IMG/VR virus record: IMGVR_UViG_3300008262_000001
DNA: 64,000 nt
Reading direction: 5' to 3' (one strand)
From: a virus
Lineage: Duplodnaviria > Caudoviricetes
The notes under the pieces are model-generated. The model was given only the letters and a program-made list of their open reading frames with translations, was not told the DNA's origin and searched no databases. Made by a program: the position numbers and the translations under genes. Below, piece after piece: positions 8,728-42,670 of this stretch (position 1 is its first letter; every line of letters starts with the position of its first letter).

Positions 8728-9134
8728 ATTGGCCTTGATAGAGTTATTTTGATCCTGTCTTTGAAAGGCATTGATTTAGTTTTCGTAACATCCTTTCCTA
8801 CTTTAATCAATTTATCTTTAGAATAAACATCTTGCTTCAAACCTTGTCCTTGTGATAGCTGTGATGGTTTACACTCAATGTATGCTTCTTCCCCTTTTGG
8901 GATAATATAACTTGAATTCTTATTTACAATTAAAATGTCGCCAGGTAATGCTTTCATCTTCGTCCATACTGGTTCTAAAACCTCAACACCTAAGAAGCTT
9001 CCCCCAGGTTTATATTCTTCAACACATTCTATTTGGAATTCCTCTTTGACTTCGAAAAAACAACCATCTGCATCCAAACCATACTTGGTAGGATTCGTTT
9101 TAATAAATTGATCTATTTTTTCAATTCTCCCCAT
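8724..9134 (-). CDS. hypothetical protein
   Basis: 136 aa; GATATATA lies 6 nt upstream of the ATG. Confidence 0.7.
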   Translation of the reverse strand: MGRIEKIDQFIKTNPTKYGLDADGCFFEVKEEFQIECVEEYKPGGSFLGVEVLEPVWTKMKALPGDILIVNKNSSYIIPKGEEAYIECKPSQLSQGQGLKQDVYSKDKLIKVGKDVTKTKSMPFKDRIKITLSRPI

Positions 9135-9140
9135 TTCTCT

Positions 9141-9148
9141 TATATATC
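9141..9148 (-). promoter_or_regulatory. putative late promoter GATATATA
   Basis: 6 nt upstream of the ATG at 9134. Confidence 0.6.
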
Positions 9149-9167
9149 GGATTTCGTCTATTAAAAT

Positions 9168-9175
9168 GATATATA
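9168..9175 (+). promoter_or_regulatory. putative late promoter GATATATA
   Basis: 19 nt upstream of the ATG at 9195; back-to-back with the 9141 copy. Confidence 0.6.
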
Positions 9176-9194
9176 CAATAAAAGTCTACGAACC

Positions 9195-9902
9195 ATGGTA
9201 ATAAGAAAATATTCCCAGTTTATCTCAGAATCTAAGAAAGCTTCAGGCAACCAATCGCAAGACATGGCTATCTTAGAAAATGAATATCTTAGAATGAAGT
9301 CCGAGGGCTTATCTGAACAAGAGATAAACGAAAACATATTTAGTTCTATTTTAGGTTCGCTAGGAGGAGGTTTTACTGACACTTTCAAGGATTATGTTAT
9401 TGACTGGGCAGCTGAAAAATTGGGTATTGATCCTTTCGATGATCAAGGTCAGCCTTCATTCTTTTATCAATTGATAAGAAACGTAATTGAAGGAGTAAAT
9501 ATTACTGAACTTGGAAGTTACTTCGGTAAAGGATCTTGTAAAAACTGGGCAAGAGCAATCGTAGAGGGTTTATCAGAAACTTTGCAAGAAAGGGGAATAG
9601 ACTATTTGTTACCAAAACTAGGTCTAAGACTAGATATGAATTCTGGACTAGGAGCAACAATCGCTGCTGGCTTAAGAGAAGCTTTAACTAATGCTATTAA
9701 CAACACTGGTTTCATGAACAATGTTGAAAATATGATTGGCGATAAAATCTGTGGTTTTAATCTTGGTGATATTCTTTCAGGTAGCATAAATCAAGGTGAC
9801 AAACAAAAACTAGCAGGAGAAATTGAAAAAGCCGAAACAAGAGATCCTAACATTTTCCAAAAGGCAATGAAAACAGGATTAACAGACGTTCTTCAGTTCT
9901 AA
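9195..9902 (+). CDS. putative head-internal protein
   Basis: 235 aa; starts MVIRKYSQFISES and contains INE; late-promoter motif upstream. Confidence 0.6.
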   Translation: MVIRKYSQFISESKKASGNQSQDMAILENEYLRMKSEGLSEQEINENIFSSILGSLGGGFTDTFKDYVIDWAAEKLGIDPFDDQGQPSFFYQLIRNVIEGVNITELGSYFGKGSCKNWARAIVEGLSETLQERGIDYLLPKLGLRLDMNSGLGATIAAGLREALTNAINNTGFMNNVENMIGDKICGFNLGDILSGSINQGDKQKLAGEIEKAETRDPNIFQKAMKTGLTDVLQF

Positions 9903-9917
9903 ATTATTAAATATAAA

Positions 9918-10184
9918 ATGAATCAAAAAAACGTAACAAAAAGGGAAATCCTAAGTTATAAAGATTTTCTAAAAGTTATACAAGATCCATGGAATCCAGA
10001 AAATCTTAGTAAAGAGGATAGAACAGGATTTCATAAAATAACACCAGAAGAAGCTTATGCTTATGTTGGTTTCCAGGATTCTATATTCAAAGGACAATCA
10101 AAAATTGATTATCCAGGATATGGAGCAACTGAAACTGGCAGCGCACAATCAATAGGTCTAACAGAAAAAAATCAAAACAGATGA
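9918..10184 (+). CDS. hypothetical protein
   Basis: 88 aa; stop overlaps the next start (ATGA). Confidence 0.65.
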   Translation: MNQKNVTKREILSYKDFLKVIQDPWNPENLSKEDRTGFHKITPEEAYAYVGFQDSIFKGQSKIDYPGYGATETGSAQSIGLTEKNQNR

Positions 10185-10763
10185 GTAAAAAAATAATGAC
10201 TTTCGAAGAATACAGTTCTGCGAATCCTATTCAGAATCCAAGAAAATCTTTCTGGAGCGATATGGAAATTGAAGAAGAAGAGGAAAACGAGGAAACAGAG
10301 GAAGAAGATTCTGAAGATGAAGAAGAGGAGAAAACTGAAAAAACCTCTAAAAAGTCTAAGAAAGTAAAAGACACTAAAGAAGAATCAGAAGAGGATACTG
10401 AAGAGGAATCTGAGGAAGATACCGAAGAAGAATCTGACGAGGAATCTGAAGAGGATACTGAAGAAGAAACTGAGGAGGATACTGAAGAAGAAACTGAGGA
10501 AGATACTGAAGAGGAATCTGAAGAGGATACTGAAGAAGAAACTGAGGAGGATACTGAAGAAGAAACTGAGGAAGATACTGAAGAGGAATCTGAAGAGGAT
10601 ACTGAAGAAGAAACTGAGGGAAGGCACTGAAGATGATGAAGATGAAGATGAAGATGATAACGAAGATGAAGACGATTCCGAGGAAGAAGATGAATCTGAT
10701 CTAGAAAACGAAAGAGAGGAACAAACTCAAAAAGTTATAAGATTTGATAAGTTCTTTAGTTAA
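10181..10763 (+). CDS. highly acidic Glu/Asp/Thr repeat protein, interrupted by a 1-nt frameshift near 10619
   Basis: The ORF stops at 10630, but the +1 frame from 10620 continues EGTEDDEDEDEDDNEDEDDSEEEDESDLENEREEQTQKVIRFDKFFS to TAA at 10761-10763, followed by a terminator. Confidence 0.7.
10385..10620 (+). repeat. coding tandem repeat with a 24-bp unit (EEDTEEE[T/S]) and exact 72-bp higher-order duplication
   Basis: The 72-mer gaggaatctgaagaggatact...gaagatactgaa starts at 10439 and 10511, with a partial third copy at 10583. Confidence 0.9.
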
Positions 10764-10781
10764 GAATTTCTTGTAAATCAC

Positions 10782-10808
10782 AAGCCCAGATTATTCTGGG
10801 CTTTTTTG
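10782..10808 (+). terminator. intrinsic terminator
   Basis: AAGCCCAGA-ttat-TCTGGGCTT followed by a T run. Confidence 0.85.
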
Positions 10809-10817
10809 TTGTTTCTA

Positions 10818-10825
10818 GATATATA
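10818..10825 (+). promoter_or_regulatory. putative late promoter GATATATA
   Basis: 4 nt upstream of the ATG at 10830. Confidence 0.55.
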
Positions 10826-10829
10826 CACT

Positions 10830-12314
10830 ATGGAAAATACCCTGTTGGAGAAATTTATTTTTAAAGGAATTAAAGGGAAAGATAGACCTTTGACCGTTGT
10901 TATTCTTACAACAAAGCTTGGAAAAAGTCTAAAAAACGCTCCAACTACAGATAAGATCATGAAAATCTGTGAGGAAAGGGGTGTACGCTGTATTATCATT
11001 GATACAGAAAAAGGATCAATACAAAAGACTTTAAAGGGAACATTTTTAATTTCTTCAAACGGAGATAAACCCAAGGAAATCTATTTAGATAGAACTGTAG
11101 TTTTAACAAGAAGATCTTCTATTAAGAATAACGCAGCCAAAGGATTTTTCAAGAAAATGGAAGACCTTGGATTTCCTTGCGTCAATTCGTATGAATCTGT
11201 CATTATTTGCGAAGATAAATTACAAACAACTAGAAAGCTTGAAATCAATGGTATTCCTGTTCCTAAAACGTCCCTGATTTCATCTCCTGCTGATATAGAT
11301 AAAGCGGTTGCTGAGGTTGGAGGTAATTACCCAGTAGTTTGTAAATTTCTTTCTGGTACTAAAGGAATAGGTGTTTTTATGATTGATTCTAGACCTTCTC
11401 TTGTATCAACTCTGCAAGCAATTTGGCACCTAGCTCCTGGGACTGAAATAGTTCTTCAAGAAAAAATTGATGCTGAATATGACTTAAGAATACACGTTGT
11501 TGCTGAAACTAATGATTCATTAGGCAGAGAGTACAAAGTCATAGCAGCGATGAAAAGAATTAAGATTGAAGGGGATTTTAGAACAAACTTTTCATTAGGT
11601 GGTGCAACGGAACAAGTAGAGCTTTCACCAGAAATCGAAAAAATAGCAATTGAATCAGCAAAAGCAACCGGATGCCTCTGGTGCGGAGTAGATATTATCG
11701 TAGATAAACAGGATCAAAGGCCATTCGTTTTAGAAGTCAACGCATCACCAGGAACTACTGGTATCGAAAAAACTACTAAAATACCAGTAACTGATTATAT
11801 CTTAGATTTTCTTTTGGATAAGAAGAATTGGGTTAAACCTAAAAAAGTAACTGGGTTCAGAGAAATGATTTCGATCCCAGGGGTTGGCTCTTTTGTTGGA
11901 AAACTAGATACAGGAAACGGATCTACCTCTTGCTCACTTCATGCAGACTTTATAGAGGAAGTTGATGGATATGTAAACTGGAAGATAGGTGATAAAGAAT
12001 TCAGAAATAAAATAGTTGGACAATCTAAAGCCGAAGTCGGAGAAAAAACATATCATAGATCGGTAGTTAACCTTGATGTAGATTTCAACGGAATAGTATA
12101 CAGAAAAGTCAAATTCTCTCTAGTAGACAGAACAGAAAAAAGTACTCCTTTATTATTGAACAGGGACTTCTTAAGTTCTGCAGGATTAATTGTAGATCCT
12201 TCTGAAGATTTTGTAATTACAGATCGACCTGAAGGTTACTCACCTAGAGACGCAAAGGGAAATCCCATTGCAGGTGTGGAAATTGTTTTAGCTAACGGAT
12301 CCCATAACAAATAA
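10830..12314 (+). CDS. rimK: RimK-family ATP-grasp glutamate ligase fused to a C-terminal RimB-like (retropepsin-type) protease
   Basis: ATP-grasp motifs: CEDKL.T, IPVPKT, VVCKFLSGTKGIGV, LQEKI, DLRIHVV, FRTNFSLGG, CGVDII, LEVNASPG. C-terminal GKLDTGNGSTSCSLHA and SLVDRTEKSTPLLLNRDFL. Start moved to MENTLL at 10830. Confidence 0.85.
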   Translation: MENTLLEKFIFKGIKGKDRPLTVVILTTKLGKSLKNAPTTDKIMKICEERGVRCIIIDTEKGSIQKTLKGTFLISSNGDKPKEIYLDRTVVLTRRSSIKNNAAKGFFKKMEDLGFPCVNSYESVIICEDKLQTTRKLEINGIPVPKTSLISSPADIDKAVAEVGGNYPVVCKFLSGTKGIGVFMIDSRPSLVSTLQAIWHLAPGTEIVLQEKIDAEYDLRIHVVAETNDSLGREYKVIAAMKRIKIEGDFRTNFSLGGATEQVELSPEIEKIAIESAKATGCLWCGVDIIVDKQDQRPFVLEVNASPGTTGIEKTTKIPVTDYILDFLLDKKNWVKPKKVTGFREMISIPGVGSFVGKLDTGNGSTSCSLHADFIEEVDGYVNWKIGDKEFRNKIVGQSKAEVGEKTYHRSVVNLDVDFNGIVYRKVKFSLVDRTEKSTPLLLNRDFLSSAGLIVDPSEDFVITDRPEGYSPRDAKGNPIAGVEIVLANGSHNK

Positions 12315-13709
12315 TTCGACTATCTTCTTTCTGTAAGATGTTTGATCGTCGACTATCATTTGATTTTTCAAAGGCAATTTCTTTCTTTCTATAACCGAAT
12401 CTGGAATTAATCCCTTAAAAGTATCCTTCAGGATTTTCTTATTTTTCCTTTCTTCAAAAGGAAGATGTAAAGCAAACCTTACCACATCATGATTTAGGAA
12501 AGGACTCCGTAACTCTAACGTGTGAGCCATTGAAAGCTTATCTAATCTTGGTAAATGATAATGTGTTAATTCATGAAAGATATCAGAGCTTTGAGAGTCG
12601 TATTCATTAATTCTTCTATATCCTCCGAACAATTCATCTGCACCATCACCAGAAATTACTATTCTAGTATCTGTACCCTTCCTAATTGCATCGAATAAAT
12701 GATACTGAGGAATTACACTTCCAAGATCAACAGGAGACTCGTTCCATTTTTGGTAGATTTCTAGAAGGGTCTTCTTTCCTTCTTCAGTTTCTAAATCTAC
12801 TCCGTAGTTTAATCTTTTTGAAGAAATTTCCCAATATTTCTCACATTCTTGTACATACTGTTCATCTTCGCCATTTGATATAGAATAAAAACTTACATTT
12901 GCATCTAATTTTAGTAATAGTCCTGCTATTATAGCAGAATCCAATCCTCCAGAAAGCAAAAGGGATGTTGGATAATTTTTAGACAGAAGTCTTGATTTAA
13001 CAGAGTTTTCCATCTTTTGCCAAAGCCAGTCCATTCTATCATCATAAGTCTCTAATCCCGCATCAAAAGAGTAAAAGTTATAATAAGGATTTGAAATCTC
13101 AACTTTTATTGGATGATCCAAAGACCACCTGTAAAATCTATTAGGTTCGAGTTTTTGGATATTCATGAAAGGAGTTTCGTTTGTAGGAACATATCCAAAT
13201 TTAACTACTCCACTGAAGAAGGCAGGATTATAAAGTACAGGATCCTCTTTTTCGTATAAACCTTTTATTTCTGAGCAAACCTCCCCTCTGTCGTTTTTAT
13301 ATAAGCATTTTTTACCTAGAGGATCAGTGAAAGCATAAACTTCCCTTTTTTCTGTATCGACTAAAACTATTGCCCAAAACCCATCCCAAGAAACCACATG
13401 CGGCTCGTAGATAGCCTGTAACATGCCTATACCAGAAAAATTAAAACTACTAAAAAGGTTTTGTAAATATGCAGTGTCAGATTCAAAATCCCCGGAGTAG
13501 TTGAATATTTCTCCATTAAATAGCAACCATCTATTTTCTCCTATTTGAATTGGCTGTGACCAATTATCTCCATCTAATGTTTGAATAGGTAGACGATGAT
13601 GAACTAATGAAAGATCTTTATGTTGGACCATAGAGTATTCTGTACCTCTATGTGATATTGACAAAACCCGTTCCTCGCTCGGGTTCTTAGCTACTAAAAT
13701 TCCACACAT
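12288..13709 (-). CDS. asnB: asparagine synthetase B-like glutamine amidotransferase
   Basis: MCGI N-terminal nucleophile, HRG, FNGEIFNY, LLLSGGLDS, SGDGADELFGGY, LELRSPFL. Confidence 0.9.
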   Translation of the reverse strand: MCGILVAKNPSEERVLSISHRGTEYSMVQHKDLSLVHHRLPIQTLDGDNWSQPIQIGENRWLLFNGEIFNYSGDFESDTAYLQNLFSSFNFSGIGMLQAIYEPHVVSWDGFWAIVLVDTEKREVYAFTDPLGKKCLYKNDRGEVCSEIKGLYEKEDPVLYNPAFFSGVVKFGYVPTNETPFMNIQKLEPNRFYRWSLDHPIKVEISNPYYNFYSFDAGLETYDDRMDWLWQKMENSVKSRLLSKNYPTSLLLSGGLDSAIIAGLLLKLDANVSFYSISNGEDEQYVQECEKYWEISSKRLNYGVDLETEEGKKTLLEIYQKWNESPVDLGSVIPQYHLFDAIRKGTDTRIVISGDGADELFGGYRRINEYDSQSSDIFHELTHYHLPRLDKLSMAHTLELRSPFLNHDVVRFALHLPFEERKNKKILKDTFKGLIPDSVIERKKLPLKNQMIVDDQTSYRKKIVELFVMGSVS

Positions 13710-13712
13710 ATT

Positions 13713-14249
13713 TTAAAATTGTGATACTTTTGATTTAAAGCGTATTACTGAATCTAAATCCATATTGTTATGGAAAACCTCTATGTCAACTCCCAAGTCT
13801 AGCAGCAAGGAAGAAAACGATGAAAAAAGACCCTTCTCTTCTTCTCTTCGTTGGTCGTCTTTATCCCAGATATCTTTGTTTCTATTTTGCTCGTATAATC
13901 CTTCAACAAGAATAATCTTTGTTTTTCTAAAAAATCCTCTTTTGCTGAAATTTATAAGATCCCTTTTTGCTTCCTGTTCAGTTATTCTACCTTGGAATAC
14001 TCCCCAAACAGAATTTGTAAGAATCCCTCTATCAACTATAATCTTTGGTAGAAATCCTTGGTTATCTAACTCGTGCAACATAACTTCTTTTCCTAATCCG
14101 AACCAATGAACAATTTCGTCATTTTTAGAAAATTCCCATGTTTCGAAATTAGAATTGAAATCGAATTTAAAAACTGGTAAAGATTTTTGCTGTTGGACGA
14201 GATAAGTTTTTCCACTTTTTCTAGCACCTTCAATAATTAGTAAGCTCAT
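13713..14249 (-). CDS. P-loop nucleoside monophosphate kinase-like protein
   Basis: LIIEGARKSGKT Walker A and IVDRG (thymidylate-kinase-like). Start taken at MSLLII. Confidence 0.65.
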   Translation of the reverse strand: MSLLIIEGARKSGKTYLVQQQKSLPVFKFDFNSNFETWEFSKNDEIVHWFGLGKEVMLHELDNQGFLPKIIVDRGILTNSVWGVFQGRITEQEAKRDLINFSKRGFFRKTKIILVEGLYEQNRNKDIWDKDDQRREEEKGLFSSFSSLLLDLGVDIEVFHNNMDLDSVIRFKSKVSQF

Positions 14250-14320
14250 GTTTTTTGTATAAAAAAAGGATATAACCATAGATTATATCCTTTAAATTAA
14301 TAAAATTTCTTTGTCTGGAA

Positions 14321-16393
14321 TTATTCCCCAGCAGCCATCATACTTACATCAAGACCTTTTTCTTTCAAGATTTTTTTAACTTGTGGCCAAAGAGTATCAT
14401 CATATAACCATTGCTTAAGTGTGTCACCATCTTTCAAACCCCAAGCATCATTCAAAGCATTTAAATCACCTTGAGTTTTAATTTTCTCTCTGAATAATTT
14501 TTGAACCTGTCCACCTTCGTAAGCTGTATTAATTCCTTTCATATTCATGAGAAGTTCAGAAACCATCTCCTGATATTGGGCATCTGTATATGTCCTTTTC
14601 ATCTTTTCTTCGGTAGCTGCTTGTTTCTGTTTTTCTTTTCCAGTAATTTTTCCTGCTACTGTTCCTTTTCCAACCTCTTTAAGTGAAAATGTTCCTTGAC
14701 CATCTCTGAAAGCAATTTGCCAAGATGATGGATCAGTCTCTTTGCCCTGTGGAATGTTTAGATCTGCATCGAATCTTGTATATCCTGAAACTCCTTTGTT
14801 GAAATTAGAAAAATAAGATGCTGTATAATTTGAATAAAGAAGTAAAGCCTCGTTTGCATCCTCCAAATCTATTTGGACATAAAACGTGTTTCCTGTTGGT
14901 AAAATTTCTACTTTGACTTCCCCACTTCCACCAGCGAAACCACTAAACCATTTCATTGGATTATTTTGAACTTCCGTCTTTAAATAGTCATAAACTTTTT
15001 TAATCTGATCATTGCTTAAGACTTGAACCTCTGTTTCCCCTGAAATTTTATAGGTACCATCTTTGATTTCTTTCAAATACTGCTGACCATACTGAGCAAA
15101 AGCTTTTCTTATAAATTTATTATTGAATTCTCCGCTCTTGTCAAGCTGTATTTTTTTAGCATATTCTGGATCCTTCTCGTTTACATAAACTCTAAAAAAA
15201 TTGCCTTCTTCTTTAGTTTTAAAAGGAGTTGCAGGATTAGCCTCACCTACTGGATCCTTCTTAGCTCCAACTCCTGAAGTTCCGCCACGAGGGACGTTTC
15301 TACCTGACTTAACAGCCTCAACGTCAAATCCCTCGTTTAATTTTTTTTTTATAAAACTATCAAAAGAAACCAATTTCAAATTTGTTCCCAAGGATTCATT
15401 AGTTTCTTTATAATTTAATAGAATTGTGTAAAATTCTGGCGTTATATTTCCAGTTTTATCATTCTCGAGCTCTTTGTAGCTCTTTCTCAATCCATTCTTA
15501 ACATCTTTAATAACATTAGCAGTATTAGCTCTTAATGTAGAACTTACTTTTGGGTAGCTTGCATAAACCTTACTCCAATCACTAGTTCCACTTACTGCAT
15601 CATATTTTTTGAACTTCTCATAGATTAATTTTTTAACCTCTTTAACTACCTCACCGTCTTTTCCTGAATAAGCTTCACCACTCCTTTCTTTAATTGTTGA
15701 AGTTAATCCACCTTGGATAGTTGATCCTGTTGATCCTGTTGCTCCAGATGCTCCTGTAGATCCACTTGCAAGTTGTTGTGCTGCAAGTCTCATTGTATCG
15801 AGAACCTTTACCATTTCATTCTTAGCATCAGAAAATAAAGTTTCAGCGTCTTGCAGCGGTTTTGTAATTGTTGGATATTCAATATCAGCAATCACCTTTT
15901 CTGACTCTTTCGCCCACTCATCACGATAACTTTGTGATGCTTCAGTGAAATCAGTATATAGATCAGAATAGTTATTTCTGAAATTGTTTATCAAAGCTAA
16001 ATCTTTAGTAACTTCTAAAAATTTACCATCTTTCTCCCTTTGATAAACTGCCTCAGCTTTCAGTTTTGCAACACGATCTATAAGTCTAGTAAAGATAGTG
16101 GTGTATTTCTTTCCAGTTTGAGCACCTGCAAGATTTGAAGCTGGGTTTTGTCTTTGTTGTGCATCGTTATAATCAGCAACTATCGAATTTTTAAGAGCTT
16201 CCAACGAATCAATAAAAGGATTCAATTTGAAATCTTTTTCATCGTCCTGGAATTTGTCTTGTCTTCTTTCTTCGCGTCTTTCTGCTCTATCCTCTTTTCT
16301 TTGCTTACTATCTCTTCTTTCCTCCAGATTCATGTTATATGAATCACTTTTCATACTTTCGATTAAGCGAGAGAAATTGTTACTAAGTGCCAT
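14321..16393 (-). CDS. putative virion/head protein: coiled coil, short collagen-like linker, PG-binding-like region and C-terminal annexin-like repeat
   Basis: 690 aa; GSTGASGATGSTG linker; GKDGEVVKEVKKLI; C-terminal ELLMNMKGINT...IKTQGDLNALNDAWG..DGDTLKQWLYDD. Confidence 0.55.
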   Translation of the reverse strand: MALSNNFSRLIESMKSDSYNMNLEERRDSKQRKEDRAERREERRQDKFQDDEKDFKLNPFIDSLEALKNSIVADYNDAQQRQNPASNLAGAQTGKKYTTIFTRLIDRVAKLKAEAVYQREKDGKFLEVTKDLALINNFRNNYSDLYTDFTEASQSYRDEWAKESEKVIADIEYPTITKPLQDAETLFSDAKNEMVKVLDTMRLAAQQLASGSTGASGATGSTGSTIQGGLTSTIKERSGEAYSGKDGEVVKEVKKLIYEKFKKYDAVSGTSDWSKVYASYPKVSSTLRANTANVIKDVKNGLRKSYKELENDKTGNITPEFYTILLNYKETNESLGTNLKLVSFDSFIKKKLNEGFDVEAVKSGRNVPRGGTSGVGAKKDPVGEANPATPFKTKEEGNFFRVYVNEKDPEYAKKIQLDKSGEFNNKFIRKAFAQYGQQYLKEIKDGTYKISGETEVQVLSNDQIKKVYDYLKTEVQNNPMKWFSGFAGGSGEVKVEILPTGNTFYVQIDLEDANEALLLYSNYTASYFSNFNKGVSGYTRFDADLNIPQGKETDPSSWQIAFRDGQGTFSLKEVGKGTVAGKITGKEKQKQAATEEKMKRTYTDAQYQEMVSELLMNMKGINTAYEGGQVQKLFREKIKTQGDLNALNDAWGLKDGDTLKQWLYDDTLWPQVKKILKEKGLDVSMMAAGE

Positions 16394-19163: not shown

Positions 19164-20936
19164 TTAGATAATAGCAGTGTTTGTTCCAGCGTTAACGTGG
19201 AAGCAGATGTACATTGTTTCTGGAAGGTGACCAGCTTCAACAAGAGCGTATCTTGATTTAACTGCGATCTTCGGTGACATTGTACCTTCAGAGATTGTCT
19301 GAATAGATTCAGCCATCATGTAAGGCATGAACTTCATACCTGGCTCATCATCAGCACCTTTTCTACCAACTAATACTCTTGTATCACTGAACTGCATGTT
19401 CTGATCAACATATACAGTCATACCAGCAAGTGAACCTACTGGGTAAAGTGTACCGTTGTTCTGAGTAAGAGTGTTAGTAAACGGAGCGAATGTGAACTGA
19501 CTGATGTCTTGTAAAGCAGACGCGATTTGTGAGTTAGTAACGATGAAGTTAGCAGGACCTCTACGACCTCTGTTAGCAACTACGTTAGCAGCAGCTAAAA
19601 TACGGCTGTAAAGTCTTCTTTGAACTGTTGATAAGTTCTCAAAAGTACCTGAAGCAGGACCAGCAACTGAACCTGGCTTAGCAGAACCTGTGATAGCAAG
19701 ACCCATTTTACCTACGTAATCTGGAACTGCATAACCTGAAGCAGCACCACCAATTACCAAGTTAAGGTTAAGGTTAGTTTGCTCAGTTACTAAGAACTGT
19801 GAGTGGTTTGACCAGCCAAGAGCAAAACCTCTTGATAGAATGTGCTTGTTAATAGCCTGAGATACCTCGTTAACAAGAGCGTTTTCGATCATAGAAACTA
19901 CGTCGATACCGAACTGTTTGTTAAGGTCTTGGATTTGCTCAGTTGTAACAGAAGCAGCAACTTGGAAAGTACCAGCTTCTACAAACTTAGTGAATGTAGA
20001 AAGACCAAGTGACTTGTAATAAGTTGATTCTGCAACACCTCTTAACATTGGATCGTAGTTTTGTGTGCCATCTACGTATGGACCTTGCCAGTTATTAGTG
20101 TTAGATTGACCAGCACCAGAGAAACCTTGAATGTGATCTTCTAATGTCTTAACCAATACTGCGTTACCACCGGAGAAAGCAAGAACGTTACCAGTTGTAG
20201 TCATAGTTTGGTCGTTAGCCTGGCTTGATGCTAAACGAATTTCAGAGTTAGCAGTAACTGTTGTGGCAATAGAATCACCAGAAGTTAATGCAGTGATCTG
20301 GAAAATTGGGAAACCGTCAATACGTGAGTATCCAACAAATTTACCTTTAGCAGAATCGGATGATGCAGTAGCTCCAGTAACTAAGATGATGTAGTAACTA
20401 CCAACTGTTAGAGTACCAAATACAGGAGAAGCAACAGCGATAGGCACCTTAATCATATCAGGTGTGTTTGCAGTAAAGTTGGTAGTAGTATCTGTTGAAG
20501 TACCAGACAAAGTACCACCTGCATACACATAGTCAAGATAAGAAAGTACCCCTGTTGGTCCGCTCATTGGAATAACAGGAACAATGTCAAAACCAACGGT
20601 TTTAGCAGCTACCTGAATAGCCAATGGAAGAAGTGAAGGGAACTTATCACCAGAACCTACATAAGGAGTACCAGCGTTGTAAGTGTTGTTGTAGTAAAAA
20701 CCAGCATTACCTGGGCCAGCTGCTGCATTACTACCGGAGTAGTTACCAGGAGGCATGATGGCACCCATACCATTTAAAGCACCGAGAGAGTTGTAAGCTC
20801 CAGCAGATTCGTTAAGTGAGTGGAAGTGGCAATATTTAGAAAGCCATTCTACTTTTGAACGATCAGTCATGCCGGTCTTGCTCTCAATAATGGGAGACCA
20901 TGTTTCGTAGATCTCGTTTTGATTTAAGAGTTGCAT
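19164..20936 (-). CDS. gp23: major capsid protein (T4 gp23-like)
   Basis: TWSPIIE, GFDIVPVIPMSGPTG, NEVSQAINKHI, ANRGRRGPANFIVT, GSLAGMTVYVD, MPYM, PKIAVKSRYA. Confidence 0.93.
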   Translation of the reverse strand: MQLLNQNEIYETWSPIIESKTGMTDRSKVEWLSKYCHFHSLNESAGAYNSLGALNGMGAIMPPGNYSGSNAAAGPGNAGFYYNNTYNAGTPYVGSGDKFPSLLPLAIQVAAKTVGFDIVPVIPMSGPTGVLSYLDYVYAGGTLSGTSTDTTTNFTANTPDMIKVPIAVASPVFGTLTVGSYYIILVTGATASSDSAKGKFVGYSRIDGFPIFQITALTSGDSIATTVTANSEIRLASSQANDQTMTTTGNVLAFSGGNAVLVKTLEDHIQGFSGAGQSNTNNWQGPYVDGTQNYDPMLRGVAESTYYKSLGLSTFTKFVEAGTFQVAASVTTEQIQDLNKQFGIDVVSMIENALVNEVSQAINKHILSRGFALGWSNHSQFLVTEQTNLNLNLVIGGAASGYAVPDYVGKMGLAITGSAKPGSVAGPASGTFENLSTVQRRLYSRILAAANVVANRGRRGPANFIVTNSQIASALQDISQFTFAPFTNTLTQNNGTLYPVGSLAGMTVYVDQNMQFSDTRVLVGRKGADDEPGMKFMPYMMAESIQTISEGTMSPKIAVKSRYALVEAGHLPETMYICFHVNAGTNTAII

Positions 20937-20947
20937 TTTATTAGATC

Positions 20948-22993
20948 TTATTTTTTAAATCTTTTGTCTAATTCAGCTGCGATGTTTGCGATATAGCTGT
21001 TGCTAATTCCGCTGTTCGTAGCATTATTAGGGTTTTGGGACTCGTCTAATCTTTCCAAATTAGCCTGTGGAGCTTGAAATCCTCTAGTTCTCCAGAAGTT
21101 GTTAATCTGATAAGGAGTGTCTAAGTGATAGAATTTACTTTGAGCAACAATTGATGCTTTCTGTGATTCATTCAAAGAGTTCCAAACAGGTACCAAATCT
21201 TGTGGTATCATATCGAGGAATTTTTCTCCAGACTGAGCTTGTTCAGTTAGAGCAGATCCCATAATTTGAACTACGTCCATACCTGAACTGTAATTCTGCT
21301 CATTAAGAGCTTTAACGACCTTTTGTTTTTCGGCCTCGTTCAAAGAGATAAATCCTTTCTTTGTTTGTTCATCAACAAGCTTTAAGAAAGAATATTTATT
21401 TTCGTTTACGATTTCTTCAGTTTTGTTCTTGCTAAGTGATTCAATTAATTGATCGACTTTGCCAGAAAGTGAATTGTAATCACCTGAGAAACCAGAAGTT
21501 CTTTTTCCTTTTTCTACTGAATCATTAATTTGTTTAGCCATATCATTACCGGAATTTTTAATTCCTTTGTTATTGATAGACTCGGCCAAATATTGTGAGT
21601 ATTCAATACCAGATTTAACTTTTTCAGCTAAGTATTCTGAGTAGTTAATGTTTCCGTTTACTTTCTCACCAAGGTAATCTGAATAAGAAATGCTCTTATC
21701 TAGATTCTCAGCAAGATAATCAGAATAAGAGATGTTCTTATCCAATTTCTCTGCGAGATATTCTGAGTAAGAAATGTTTCTGTCAACGTTTTCAGCCAAG
21801 TATTCAGCATAAGAGATGTTCTTGTCCAAGTTCTCAGCAAGATACTCAGAATAAGAAATGTTCTTATCTAAGTTTTCAGCAAGATACTCTGAATAGGAAA
21901 TGTTCTTATCTAAATTCTCAGCGATATATTTGCTGTAAGCAATATTGTTGTCAAGATTCTCTGCAATATATTCTGAATAAGAAATGTTGCCATCTACGTG
22001 CTCTGCTAAGTATTTAGCATATGAAATAGCTTTGTCAAGATTTTCAGCAAGATACTTATTATAAGAAATAGAACCTTCTAAATTCTCTGCTAAGTAATCA
22101 CCAAAGTTAATTGCAGATTCTAAGTTCTCTGCAAGATATTCTGAATACTTTTCAAGTCTTTGAATTCTCTCCTCTAATGCTGAATCGTTGTTACTAGAAG
22201 TAGAACCTTTTGAAAAGGATTTCATTTCATTCTTCAAAGAATCCATTTCCTTTTTAAGAATGAGTGAATATTCGTTTAATTCTTCTGCTGTGACAAAGTT
22301 ATTGTCCATATTCTTTGTATTATTTGTATTTTCTAAAAGTTTAGAGATCTTCTCTATATCTTTAATTCTATATATCTGCGTGTTAGAATTTTTTCTCAAT
22401 CCTAAGCTCTCGTTTATATTGGTTAAAGAAGAAACTATTGAACTTTTGATCTCTTCTGCAAAGGAAGTAAAACCTAAGCTTTCGTATAAACTTTCGCTAA
22501 CTCTTTCTAATTGAGCATTTTCAAAACCAGGATCAGCTACTAGATCATAAGTAAAGATCTTCTTGATCTCTACTTTTTTATTTTCTTTTACGTTACCTGC
22601 TGCTCTAGAAGAAATAGAAATAGGAATACCTGCATCAACAAGATTCTGTGCAATTTTACCGGCTGGAGTATCAAGAAGCTTAACCTTGATCTTTACACAT
22701 CTGTCTTTATTATCATAATCTAAATCTGTGATAATGTGAGATATGTTCTTTAAAGAAACATCGAATTCTTTTGGGTGATCTAATTCACCAACCAAACGAT
22801 TTTGTTCAATCTTCTTTTTCAAATAATCAAGATGTGGCAAATATTCCTTCTCCTCGTAAATTCTATGATTAGAATTCTCAATTCCGAAAACTGCTGCTAC
22901 ACCTTCTAGAAAATATTCTCCTCCTTCTTTCTTACTTGAAAGATTTACAGTTGATTTTTCTAGAATCAGTACGTAATCTTGGTTTTTTTCCAT
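20948..22993 (-). CDS. gp21: prohead protease (gp21-like) fused to a scaffold/core domain (gp22-like)
   Basis: FLEGVAAVFGIENSNHRIY, VGELDHP, VSLKNISHII, LLDTPAG, ISISSRAAG, TYDLVADPGFENA, then a long helical repeat region. Confidence 0.88.
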   Translation of the reverse strand: MEKNQDYVLILEKSTVNLSSKKEGGEYFLEGVAAVFGIENSNHRIYEEKEYLPHLDYLKKKIEQNRLVGELDHPKEFDVSLKNISHIITDLDYDNKDRCVKIKVKLLDTPAGKIAQNLVDAGIPISISSRAAGNVKENKKVEIKKIFTYDLVADPGFENAQLERVSESLYESLGFTSFAEEIKSSIVSSLTNINESLGLRKNSNTQIYRIKDIEKISKLLENTNNTKNMDNNFVTAEELNEYSLILKKEMDSLKNEMKSFSKGSTSSNNDSALEERIQRLEKYSEYLAENLESAINFGDYLAENLEGSISYNKYLAENLDKAISYAKYLAEHVDGNISYSEYIAENLDNNIAYSKYIAENLDKNISYSEYLAENLDKNISYSEYLAENLDKNISYAEYLAENVDRNISYSEYLAEKLDKNISYSDYLAENLDKSISYSDYLGEKVNGNINYSEYLAEKVKSGIEYSQYLAESINNKGIKNSGNDMAKQINDSVEKGKRTSGFSGDYNSLSGKVDQLIESLSKNKTEEIVNENKYSFLKLVDEQTKKGFISLNEAEKQKVVKALNEQNYSSGMDVVQIMGSALTEQAQSGEKFLDMIPQDLVPVWNSLNESQKASIVAQSKFYHLDTPYQINNFWRTRGFQAPQANLERLDESQNPNNATNSGISNSYIANIAAELDKRFKK
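21575..22147 (-). repeat. coding tandem repeat of 14 x 42 bp (YSEYLAENLDKNIS consensus)
   Basis: 14 consecutive 14-aa units counted in the translation. Confidence 0.92.
22369..22376 (-). promoter_or_regulatory. putative internal late promoter GATATATA within the protease gene
   Basis: 59 nt upstream of an in-frame ATG at 22309 (MDNNFVT). Confidence 0.5.
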
Positions 22994-39416: not shown

Positions 39417-41063
39417 TTATGCTTCTGCAGGTGGTGTTTCGGCAGCTGGAGTTTCTGTCGCAGGTGTTTCAGCAGCTGGAGTAGTTTCAGCTGGTGCTGC
39501 TCCCCCTTCTGTTGCTACACCAGAAGCTCCTTGACTTTTTTCAATGTAAGTTTTGTTCATCCTAATGTCATCATAGTTTAAATCCAAGAACCTTTCAATG
39601 AGGAAGTCTTGGTTGAAATATTGTACTTCTTCATCGTTTACATTTTCTTTGATTTCTCCCAATGATGTAACAAAATCGATTTTCTTAATAAGTTGCTCAA
39701 TTTCTCTGGATTCACCAAAAACATTGTCACTTTCGAACTTAACCCCTATTTGACTTCTAAATTCTGGGTCATTCTTAAGGCTTGGAAAATCTAAACACAT
39801 TTGAATCCAAAGGGGTTTAACAACAATCTCTTGGAATATAGACCTTAATCTTGTAACAAACTTTGAAAATCTTACTTCATCTCTTTCAGATCCATCTGCT
39901 GGGATTTTAAAAGGATTTCCAGCCCCAACCCCCCATCTTGCACTAAATCTATTGTAAGGTATTTTTGAATCCTGTCTGAGTTTGTTATAGAAATAAACAA
40001 CAGAATCCATAATGTTCAAGTTTGGCCCTTGAGCATTAATGGTTTCTACTTTAACACTATTCCCTGCTTGTTGAGGAAAAAGATAGTTTTTATAAAACTG
40101 TAAATCTGGTCTTCCATTAATAGCAAGTTCTCCTGATGTTGTATCGAGTTTAATATCCTCCTTGTAAACTGACATAAGCTCGCCAAGTGTCTCTTTTGCC
40201 TTTTGTGGTGACTTACTTCCGATAGGAACTGTCATTTTAATTCTAAACTGCGAGTTCATAACATTCCAGATAATCCTAGAATGCTCCATGATCTTTAACA
40301 AGTTATAAGATCTAATCAATCTTTCCGTATAAGATGTTCTTGATGCAGTGTTGGCCTTAGCATAAGATATGTAAATAACTTGGGCATCCAAAAGTCTTCT
40401 TTGTCTTGTAGTTTCACCATAGTATTGCCACCAGATAGATTCTCTTGTGCCATCGGGTCTTTTTTCAACTGCAGGGGTTAAACTTGTTGCATCGAGTTCT
40501 TTGAATCCCACAATTTCTTTACCATCGCTAGAGTATATGATCTCAAAAGCAAGAAACCCTTCAACTAAAAGTTGTCTGAAATATTGCCAACCAGTTAACC
40601 CATTGGCAAAATTATGAAGTACATAAAGTTTTCTGAAGTTCTTCCTAAGCGCTTGTACCACATCCTCCTTTAAATCCATATTAATCATGCTAGGATGACA
40701 AAAGAAGTTTTTCTCATCGTACACTATGGCTTCATCACAAATAGTGTCTAGAATGTATTCTATTTCAGCATTGAGGGCAAACGTTCTTAAGAAATCTCTT
40801 TTGTAAGGATAGTCTTTATCAAAATAAGCGATATATTTCCTATTAGATGTGTCTTGAGCAGCTATACTATAAATGAAATCTTCGTCATCCTCAGAAAAAC
40901 CGAATCTTTCCCTCATATTGGCTTCAGATATACCAATAGCCATAGAGTCTTGAATCACAAGATCTTTGTAATCCATTCCAAAGCTTCCTAACCCGCTGAG
41001 ATTTTTAATAATCCTCGATATGTTGGGATTGAATTTTCCTAAGTTATCTATAAATCCAGCCAT
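39417..41063 (-). CDS. gp20: portal protein paralogue B (T4 gp20-like)
   Basis: EIEYILDTICDEAIV, FRQLLVEG, LLKIMEHSRII, RDEVRFSKFVTRLR. Confidence 0.88.
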   Translation of the reverse strand: MAGFIDNLGKFNPNISRIIKNLSGLGSFGMDYKDLVIQDSMAIGISEANMRERFGFSEDDEDFIYSIAAQDTSNRKYIAYFDKDYPYKRDFLRTFALNAEIEYILDTICDEAIVYDEKNFFCHPSMINMDLKEDVVQALRKNFRKLYVLHNFANGLTGWQYFRQLLVEGFLAFEIIYSSDGKEIVGFKELDATSLTPAVEKRPDGTRESIWWQYYGETTRQRRLLDAQVIYISYAKANTASRTSYTERLIRSYNLLKIMEHSRIIWNVMNSQFRIKMTVPIGSKSPQKAKETLGELMSVYKEDIKLDTTSGELAINGRPDLQFYKNYLFPQQAGNSVKVETINAQGPNLNIMDSVVYFYNKLRQDSKIPYNRFSARWGVGAGNPFKIPADGSERDEVRFSKFVTRLRSIFQEIVVKPLWIQMCLDFPSLKNDPEFRSQIGVKFESDNVFGESREIEQLIKKIDFVTSLGEIKENVNDEEVQYFNQDFLIERFLDLNYDDIRMNKTYIEKSQGASGVATEGGAAPAETTPAAETPATETPAAETPPAEA

Positions 41064-41065
41064 AG

Positions 41066-42670
41066 TTATAATTTAAATTCTCCTGCAGCTTCTTCAGGTT
41101 TAGTTTCTTCCGTGCCCTCACCCTCTTTTCCTTCTGCTTCTTTTTTCTTCTCAGCAGCTTCTTTCTTAGCTTTTTCGTTATCAATTCTATCTTGAGCTGT
41201 CATTCCAAGATATCTGTCGAGCAAGAATTGTAAACTAAAATATGGTTTACCCTCTGAATTTTTCAAGCCCAATATTTTAATCACTTGATCTTTTCTTGCT
41301 GTCATAATTTCCATCTCCTTGGCTTCTTTAAACATGTTCTCTTTCACGTAATCAAGACCAAATTCGGATTTAATTATATAGTCATTTTTGAGATGCGGAA
41401 AGTCCAAACAAAATTGGACCCAGAGGGGTTTCATTAAGATTTCTTGGTAGATTGACCTTAGCCTGTTTATGAATTTACTAAATCTAATTTCTTCCATATC
41501 CAATCCATCTGCTCCAAAGGAAATAGTTCCTTCAGATCCGCTGTCTTCTCTTCCAAATCTTGAAACTGGAACTTTTGAATCTATCCTTAATTTGTTTGCA
41601 AAATATTGAAGAGCCTTTGTATCAGAAAATGCAGTGGCATCACCAGCTCCTGGTAAAGGCTGAATATCTGGAGTTCCATTAGGAGAAGATGGCATTAAAT
41701 AATTCTTGAAGAATTGTATTTTTGGCCTTCCGTCAACTGTTAACTCACCAGAGTCTGTATTTAATCTTATGTCCTCTTTGTAAATTGACATAAGTTCACC
41801 TAGAGTTTGTTTGGCTTTTTGTGGTGATTTTGTACCTATTGGTACAGTCATAGCCATACGATAAGAGGAATTCATCACGTTCCAAATTATCCTAGTGTGC
41901 TCCATGATTCTAAGCAAATTGAATGACCTTATTAATCTTTCAATGTAGCTTATTCTCGAAGCTGTACCACCACCCTTGGCGTAACTTATATAGATGATTT
42001 GCGAATCGTACAATTTTCTGGTTAAGGAAGGATTATCAGGATATTGAATCCAGATATCAACGAAAGATCCATCAGGCTGAGCTTCTACAGTTGGAACTAA
42101 CGATGCTGCATCTATTTCTTTGAATCCAACTATACTTTTTCCTTTCTTATCGAAAACTATTTCAAAAGCAAGATTTCCCTCTACTAAAAATTTGCGGAAT
42201 AAATGCCAAGCTGAGATATCCTGATTGAATCCAAATAGGTTATAAATTTCTTTATATCTTTTTTGGGTCTGAGCATAGATTTCTTTATCGACATCTTCAT
42301 GTTGCATGAAAGAGAAATAAGCCCAGAAATTCTTATCATCATAAACTATCGATTCATCACATACAGTATCTAATATGAATTCTATTTCCGGATTTTGTGC
42401 AAACCCTTGAACATAATGTCTTTTGTTCTTGAAATCCTTATCAAAATAAGCTATGTATTGTTTTGTTGTGGTATCTGCTTTTCTTATCCCGAAAAGGAAT
42501 GACTCATCCTTTATACCACCTTTCTTAAGAAATTGTGCCTCAGTAACACCAACTGCATAGGAATTTTTTACGACTAGATCTCCATAAGCCATTCCGAAAT
42601 TTCCCACTTTTTTAATATTCTCTACAATAGAGCTAAAAAAAGTTTTTTTGCCATCTGTAAATCCAGCCAT
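41066..42670 (-). CDS. gp20: portal protein paralogue A (T4 gp20-like)
   Basis: PEIEFILDTVCDESIV, FRKFLVEG, LLRIMEHTRII, EEIRFSKFINRLR. Confidence 0.88.
   Translation of the reverse strand: MAGFTDGKKTFFSSIVENIKKVGNFGMAYGDLVVKNSYAVGVTEAQFLKKGGIKDESFLFGIRKADTTTKQYIAYFDKDFKNKRHYVQGFAQNPEIEFILDTVCDESIVYDDKNFWAYFSFMQHEDVDKEIYAQTQKRYKEIYNLFGFNQDISAWHLFRKFLVEGNLAFEIVFDKKGKSIVGFKEIDAASLVPTVEAQPDGSFVDIWIQYPDNPSLTRKLYDSQIIYISYAKGGGTASRISYIERLIRSFNLLRIMEHTRIIWNVMNSSYRMAMTVPIGTKSPQKAKQTLGELMSIYKEDIRLNTDSGELTVDGRPKIQFFKNYLMPSSPNGTPDIQPLPGAGDATAFSDTKALQYFANKLRIDSKVPVSRFGREDSGSEGTISFGADGLDMEEIRFSKFINRLRSIYQEILMKPLWVQFCLDFPHLKNDYIIKSEFGLDYVKENMFKEAKEMEIMTARKDQVIKILGLKNSEGKPYFSLQFLLDRYLGMTAQDRIDNEKAKKEAAEKKKEAEGKEGEGTEETKPEEAAGEFKL

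Follow-up and report, generated by a model that had tools for sequence, protein, structure and literature searches.

What might a single phage protein that joins a glutamate ligase to a peptidase of oligo-glutamate (oligo-Glu) act upon, and at what point of the infection cycle? The question is raised by a 64,000-nucleotide stretch of viral DNA (Caudoviricetes; IMG/VR record IMGVR_UViG_3300008262_000001; hereafter the window), in which positions 10181-12314 hold two plus strand genes, the first acid-rich and the second a RimK-RimB fusion, within a plus strand run (9195-12314) of a genome that is otherwise mostly minus strand. To our knowledge polyglutamylation is a rare bacterial protein modification, whose sole well-studied role is ribosome tuning via ribosomal protein S6. 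An initial annotation of this DNA had read the fusion as a one-protein writer and eraser of glutamylation. The observation behind that proposal, a single open reading frame (ORF) combining a RimK ATP-grasp domain with a C-terminal retropepsin-like domain, is confirmed here by hidden Markov model (HMM) and profile searches and by a structure model, and its interpretation is partly supported. Taking the evidence as a whole, we think it rather likely that the protein is a two-enzyme writer and trimmer of oligo-Glu, made late and probably packaged. The fusion gene comprises the following features.

10830-12314, plus strand: RimK-RimB fusion ORF (P0001), 494 amino acids (aa)
10830-10883, plus strand: N-terminal leader, residues 1-18, MENTLLEKFIFKG..., a divergent version of a leader that in much of the family resembles the phage T4 capsid-targeting sequence (CTS)
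10884-11834, plus strand: RimK-family ATP-grasp alpha-L-glutamate ligase domain, residues 19-335, from HMM, profile and structure model
11835-12224, plus strand: RimB/PF05618 retropepsin-like aspartic peptidase domain, residues 336-465
11907-11915, plus strand: codons for the catalytic D360-T361-G362, which all 40 aligned homologues share

The start codon is the ATG preceding ENTLLE, which is shared by the homologues; an alternative TTG at 10806 falls within the terminator and promoter region described below. From this ATG a disordered leader (residues 1-17) leads into the ligase domain (19-335), which is directly followed by the peptidase domain (336-465). The ligase domain has the RimK ATP-grasp fold with the motifs common to solved RimK proteins. 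The fusion protein matches Pfam RimK (PF08443) with an E-value of 1.8e-39 and 135.7 bits against a cutoff of 21, and passes the cutoff of TIGR00768, the RimK family of alpha-L-glutamate ligases (158.5 against 143.4 bits), while the equivalog cutoffs for MptN (the second-best NCBIfam match), LysX and CofF are all failed by wide margins. A profile built from 40 homologues finds RimK structures at 1e-38 to 1e-41, with ArgX and LysX about 20 orders of magnitude weaker (1e-17), and the RimK part is 27-30% identical to solved RimK proteins. The AlphaFold2 model computed from the 40-row homologue alignment (predicted local distance difference test, pLDDT, 85.2; predicted template modelling score 0.75; the single-sequence run gave only pLDDT 32.8) fits Pseudomonas RimK (7qys; Foldseek template modelling score 0.87, E 3e-24) and, in VIA, E. 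coli RimK (4iwx; Z 28.7, root-mean-square deviation (rmsd) 3.2, 291 residues), and the VIA Z values for ArgX and LysX (28.6 and 26.9) are level with that of RimK. Residues K172, G176, G179-V182 (in the loop SGTKGIGV), Q210/E211, D288/E302/N304, R220 and R94 are invariant across the 40 homologues, and pairwise alignments show that this loop and the further RimK motifs QE, DLR, DFRTN, GVD and EVNxSPG are kept family-wide. R220 and N304 correspond in the alignment to R189 and N262 of P. aeruginosa RimK, both of which touch the Glu chain in that enzyme (PMC10092738); the residue equivalent to R8 is not conserved in the phage family.

Residues 336-465 take the retropepsin-like fold of PF05618/RimB; the domain sequence includes GKLDTGNGSTSCSLHA, and both its DTG and the longer DTGNG are invariant. 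The proposed HMM assignment stands outright for RimK and, for the second half, by way of the family: the window sequence scores 23.0 bits with PF05618 as a full protein and 26.5 bits as a domain alone against a gathering score of 27, but 39 of the 40 homologues match (best 5e-9), and Yersinia phage YerA41 gp066 (29.0 bits), Pelagibacter phage Mosig gp5 (28.0) and the longer relative L076 (44.4) all lie above that score. The family profile aligns with near whole chains of solved PF05618 proteins (9g59, 4.6e-9; 9g58, 2.4e-8; 2pma, 4.1e-6), the DTG motifs in register. The domain model superposes on 9g59_B, the P. aeruginosa protein RloA2, with Z 14.6 and an rmsd of 2.0 Å over 121 of 141 residues, a match that came from the VIA wide search, the best 50 Foldseek hits being ATP-grasp matches. 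All 77 family ORFs recovered from IMG/VR have D[TS]G in this region, and D31 of RimB, the equivalent of D360, is essential (PMC11957791). When the isolated domain was modelled as a homodimer the prediction scored 0.64, against 0.01 for the best of three controls, a mark attained, among solved proteins, by 20 of 30 pairs and by 1 of 23 single chains; the runs had at least 91% of contacts in common with a partner pLDDT of at least 83, and in the predicted interface the DTG loops touch, D360 lying opposite D360 of the second copy. This result may reflect likeness to solved dimers, or memory of them, rather than independent evidence, because PF05618 proteins were crystallised with two chains per entry.

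The fusion architecture is not new. Monier, Claverie and Ogata (2008, Genome Biol 9:R106; PMC2530865) described, from ocean metagenomes, phage RimK carrying DUF785 (PF05618) at its C-terminus and proposed that it modifies host translation proteins. As in the window, the ATP-grasp domain precedes PF05618 and the phage-like contigs carry it beside T4-type genes, with the same proposal for host translation; their C-terminal domain was then without known function, and their source was the ocean whereas the window derives from a freshwater phage. The writer and eraser proposal is supported in both domain assignments and is what the published biochemistry leads one to expect, though it is no discovery, and the window copy adds one member to a family known in phage DNA since 2008. 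To what was considered in 2008 the present analysis adds the leader, the promoter type and the virion association.

That biochemistry is the ground for reading the fusion as a writer and trimmer, a function well supported at the level of sequence. In work from 2020 to 2025 RimB emerged as an endopeptidase of the DTG retropepsin-like type, able to trim oligo-Glu at chain ends or internally and to stimulate RimK (PMC11957791). The Pseudomonas rimABK operon encodes the same two enzyme families as the fusion; its RimK adds alpha-Glu to RpsF and also makes poly-alpha-Glu, and its RimB binds RimK and alters the ATPase rate (PMC7343187, PMC11957791, PMC10092738). In Pseudomonas the two enzymes are separate and under the control of cyclic di-GMP and RimA, whereas the phage has one chain, an extra N-terminal leader and no RimA. 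A bacterial RimBK hybrid (Desulfotalea psychrophila DP2392; mostly Flavobacteriales and Rhodobacterales; PMC11957791) has both domains in one polypeptide, as in the phage, and cleaves glutamylated RpsF, but RimB is its N-terminal domain and it lacks the leader and the phage context; the window order, RimK then RimB, is not that architecture. By these precedents the phage ligase would use ATP to add alpha-linked Glu to a Glu-ended C-terminus, or to build free poly-alpha-Glu. Oligomerisation of the RimK part would allow an active peptidase dimer to form and to cut oligo-Glu runs, and the fused enzyme would both write oligo-Glu tails and set their length.

The phage fusion family is large and essentially phage-borne: a protein search returned 317 clusters of about 490 aa each, and at least 594 IMG/VR contigs encode relatives that put writer and trimmer in one chain. 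One contig, that of P0002, is 95% identical. Cultured carriers are the Yersinia phages YerA41 and vB_Yru_GN1 and the Pelagibacter phage Mosig, in which the same fusion (YerA41 gp066, gene 112; Mosig gp5) is 32.5-35% identical to that of the window. Their leaders read LLNKFEAAD in YerA41 and PFKNYLEEATG in Mosig; the annotations read 'structural protein' and 'glutathione synthetase', and the neighbourhoods are unlike that of the window, with ribonucleotide reductase and dUTPase in YerA41 and regA and DNA polymerase in Mosig. Two family members, L076 (3284-5812, 842 aa) and L079 (759 aa), carry an extra domain of about 300 residues ahead of RimK-RimB, whose match to a cytidylyltransferase-like family is weak (PF01467, 20.6 bits; cutoff 21).

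When the fusion would be made is indicated by two elements between the acidic and fusion genes.

10782-10803, plus strand: intrinsic-terminator-like hairpin, 9-bp stem with 5 GC pairs, followed by a T-run
10818-10825, plus strand: late-type promoter-like motif GATATATA, 4 nt 5' of the fusion ATG

Terminator and promoter make the fusion gene a transcription unit of its own, with a motif in common with structural genes. The octamer GATATATA occurs 17 times in the window where 3.05 copies are expected, a count attained in none of 100 shuffles, and most copies sit 5' of genes, among them those for the prohead protease, portal-like, tail-fibre and sheath proteins and several neighbours of the fusion gene. 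The late-type motif that had been noted 4 nt before ATG-ENTLLE is thus borne out, and by analogy with TATAAATA of T4 it behaves like a late promoter of the window phage. Close relatives retain the order of hairpin, promoter and ATG. Across the family, ATATATA or TATAAATA lies at most 60 nt upstream of 38 of 62 distinct fusion genes, compared with 118 of 615 other ORFs at the same loci, counts that are uncorrected for kinship and operon position. In the window and in L005, L007-L010 and L017 only 3-5 nt separate the end of the motif from the ATG, with no visible Shine-Dalgarno sequence, so that the fusion mRNA of this close clade would be leaderless or near-leaderless; in L012, L016 and L018, of the next clade, the motif is set farther back, about 15-20 nt upstream of the start.

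Where a late-made fusion protein would go is suggested by its N-terminus. The leader has no counterpart in bacterial RimK and is disordered in the model, and across the family the extension relative to bacterial RimK has a median of 23 residues ahead of the first strand. The CTS of T4 is MKTYQEFIAE (PMC8442874), and CTS-like leaders are found in many clades of the family (YEDFLNEAK, FSDFVNEAK, LDFWSFLNEAK, LREFINES, and PFKNYLEEA in Mosig), the residue after the leader Glu being mostly A or S; a loose T4-CTS-like pattern fits 60 of 160 distinct family N-termini, compared with 1.8% of internal windows. In the window protein the core L-E-K-F-I resembles Y-Q-E-F-I of T4, with LLE at residues 5-7 ahead of it. 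The internal proteins of T4 and Alt have a short hydrophobic-x-x-F-I-x-E leader, which the leaders in much of the fusion family resemble; T4 and the window genome both have a T4-type prohead protease and a gp23-type capsid, and with Alt there is already a case of an enzyme that is packaged and, once injected, modifies proteins of the host (PMC8442874, PMC5694885, PMC3012670). The T4 cargo is an ADP-ribosyltransferase or a nuclease inhibitor, whereas the phage fusion cargo would be a ligase and peptidase, and the window leader lacks the terminal Glu. The YerA41 homologue (473 aa) was identified in purified virions using liquid chromatography-tandem mass spectrometry (PMC7354516). It is the one family member with evidence of this kind.

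Late-type promoters together with a T4 CTS-like leader across the family suggest, by analogy, packaging into the phage head, which we propose tentatively, as plausible but somewhat short of probable. Less certain than its two activities, the fusion protein, late-made and with a leader of about 18 residues that is CTS-like in much of the family, would probably enter the prohead, reach the next cell along with the DNA and there, as infection begins, act on Glu-ended host proteins, for which S6 is the precedent. The fuller scenario, in which this leader-loaded head cargo is ejected with the DNA and rewrites the oligo-Glu tails of S6 or other Glu-ended host proteins before phage gene expression, with the acid-rich neighbour co-packaged as partner or substrate, is a speculative one that we hold to be doubtful; if true, hundreds of large phages would carry such a packaged editor. 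A virion-delivered glutamylation editor is a possibility; should the enzyme enter the cell together with the DNA, it would represent a new class of host modifiers brought in by the virion and offer a direct handle on translation reprogramming by large phages, and the cultured carriers YerA41 and Mosig make the idea testable.

Several observations weigh against a late-made, packaged enzyme that acts on S6. The NCBIfam S6-ligase equivalog NF007764 is failed with about 113 bits (113.4) against a cutoff of 331, so that action on host S6 can only be surmised, and the bacterial RimBK hybrid, though proteolytically active, gave no S6 glutamylation in vitro (PMC11957791). The window leader LLEKFIFKG keeps the hydrophobic core but has no Glu cleavage site after it, and a loose CTS-like regular expression applied to the 62 window ORFs found 5, with a background of 5.5% (p 0.26, no enrichment); the leader argument consequently rests on the family and not on the window. 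Ribonucleotide reductase was likewise present in the YerA41 virion proteome, which leaves room for carry-over of abundant proteins; the YerA41 fusion gene is of the middle expression class, not late, and in T4-like relatives the gene stands among replication genes.

These last points are shared by the alternative that survives best, an unpackaged auxiliary enzyme, active late in the infected cell, which would glutamylate and trim S6 or other host or phage proteins and so bias translation. S6 is the only established protein substrate of RimK and the role is the one put forward by Monier et al. (PMC2530865); the window leader without a clear cleavage site and the gene's expression class in YerA41 and replication setting in T4-like relatives would be expected of it. 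Against it stand an N-terminal extension that is conserved though disordered, and CTS-like in many clades, the late-type promoters common in the family, and the homologue detected in YerA41 virions, and we regard it as unlikely, if worth serious consideration.

Genes with CTS-like leaders are also found around the fusion. Between 8173 and 18093, on both strands, several genes open with leaders ending hydrophobic-x-E (MRKIKTFSQFSLFES, MVIRKYSQFISES, MKITSFKKFIYEQ, MKLKRLESFSINEG, MALSNNFSRLIES; similar leaders include VIRKYSQFISES and KITSFKKFIYEQ). The block, putatively of head cargo, adjoins the capsid and protease module, and none of these genes has a Pfam or PHROG match.

The gene upstream of the fusion raises the question of substrate.

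10181-10630, plus strand: 5' part of the acid-rich gene, encoding 149 aa in this form, with KKIMTFEEY as its N-terminal motif, a run E5 and (EEDTEEET)n, ending at a TGA made by the frameshift
10388-10619, plus strand: tandem repeat array of the acidic gene, 24 nt x 9.6 copies or 72 nt x 3.2 copies
10618-10620, plus strand: GGG run at the frame shift, at the end of the repeat array
10621-10763, plus strand: 3' part of the acidic gene in another frame (EGTEDDEDED...VIRFDKFFS*), its C-terminal motif conserved in relatives

The initial annotation had described this gene as an acidic (EEDTEEET)n gene; its acidity and repeat array are real, but it is split here by an extra G, and in relatives it is intact at about 200 aa. 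Removing one G at 10618-10620 fuses the two parts into a protein of about 193 aa, and only a single loose end from a related strain, on a contig of run X2, gives the in-frame reading GAGGAAGGCACT at this site. The Logan contigs of four runs all break within the repeat (about 10432-10673), and because none spans the whole array they do not distinguish a real mutation from an error of assembly where the repeat ends. Intact homologues stand in two syntenic contigs (P0122, L003:5318-5935, 205 aa; P0123, L005:5332-5931, 199 aa). The acidic homologues have in common an N-terminal K-I-L-S/T-F/W-E-E-F and a C-terminal V-I-R-F-D-x-F motif, and the conserved C-terminus is FFN or FFS, not Glu. Searches of Pfam, PHROGs and NCBIfam gave no match for the acidic protein or the small neighbours.

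A survey of neighbourhoods in related phages finds an acid-rich ORF with such end motifs adjoining the fusion in 19 of 77 IMG/VR loci, upstream in close clades and, in some distant clades, downstream in convergent orientation, and none at the fusion loci of YerA41 and Mosig: the association is recurrent, not constant. Beyond this adjacency nothing marks the acidic protein as a substrate, and its frameshift here and the FFN or FFS ends of its relatives count against the suggestion. The second acceptor that had been put forward, an 886-aa protein ending AEESE, is not distinctive, since 6 of the 62 window proteins end in Glu, about the expectation from composition, and no RimK acceptor candidate is singled out. 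Both substrates are guesses; the acid-rich neighbour, with its similar terminal motifs, would more likely be co-cargo or a partner.

A role for this neighbour is central to another alternative, in which the fusion would be a head-maturation accessory whose target is the acid-rich protein or other head-internal proteins, RimB cutting this E-rich cargo or scaffold-like protein to acidic peptides in the prohead and the ligase extending the new Glu ends; the pair would then not be a modifier of the host. It would fit the 19 loci with conserved terminal motifs, the E4-E5 run of the acidic protein (RimB cleaves internal oligo-Glu; PMC11957791) and the position of both genes within the block of CTS-like N-termini beside the head module. 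We nevertheless judge it improbable: 58 of the 77 loci have no acid-rich neighbour within 4 kb, YerA41 and Mosig have none at the locus, the acidic gene is frameshifted in the window, and the repeat consists mostly of EE broken by D, T or S.

LysW is the carrier protein for the RimK-related ligases LysX and ArgX. That the ligase serves a LysW-like carrier, a cofactor (as MptN and CofF do), free poly-alpha-glutamate or a hypermodified DNA base, with a separate role for the protease, is very improbable: the level structural Z values of ArgX and LysX, the rank of MptN in NCBIfam, the LysW-like gene annotated about 4 kb from the fusion in YerA41, whose DNA is T-hypermodified (PMC9023294), and the free poly-alpha-Glu made by RimK in vitro all speak for it, but RimK is much closer by sequence (1e-38 against 1e-17), the LysX, MptN and CofF equivalog cutoffs are widely missed, and the oligo-Glu peptidase family to which the ligase is constantly fused suggests alpha-oligo-Glu on peptides. 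The LysW-like small protein of YerA41 (L001) lies at 10027-10407, downstream of its RimK-RimB gene.

The two-enzyme writer and trimmer that we favour belongs to a large myovirus-like phage, with two portal-like genes, a 1131-aa sheath protein and the following head genes.

19164-20936: gp23-type capsid protein (PF07068, 137 bits)
20948-22993: T4-type prohead protease (PF03420, 39.9 bits against a cutoff of 27)

The closest relatives of the capsid protein are those of an uncultured megaphage (LR756500) and of Prevotella Lak phages, at 42-44% identity, with weaker matches that include Tenacibaculum, Chryseobacterium and Flavobacterium phages, and metagenomes from many studies of lake and other fresh water contain near-identical DNA. 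By sequence the source would be a huge freshwater phage whose capsid is nearest to those of huge Bacteroidota phages. A megablast of 9000-14500 against isolated phages gave zero matches, and in the species-genome collection the close full-length relatives are contigs of metagenome-assembled genomes only, mostly in Bacteroidota bins, probably phage contigs that were mis-binned there, and a weak clue to the host.

The fusion gene has two further neighbours on the minus strand. At 12288-13709 lies an asparagine-synthase-like glutamine amidotransferase (N-terminal MCGI nucleophile; PF00733, 3.8e-37; GATase_7), convergent with the RimK-RimB gene and overlapping its 3' end by 27 nt, which is retained beside the fusion in the 13 loci of the close clade; a carboxylate-amidating amidotransferase and a Glu ligase as neighbours could have acidic substrates in common. 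A P-loop protein (GARKSGKT, 188 aa; 13713-14279), likewise a retained neighbour in the close clade, ends VIRFKSKVSQF, similar to the C-terminal motif VIRFDKFF of the acidic protein. Farther off, the two portal-like genes are paralogues lying side by side on the minus strand (39417-41063 and 41066-42670), each beginning MAGF and matching phrog_213 with an E-value of about 1e-56 to 1e-58.

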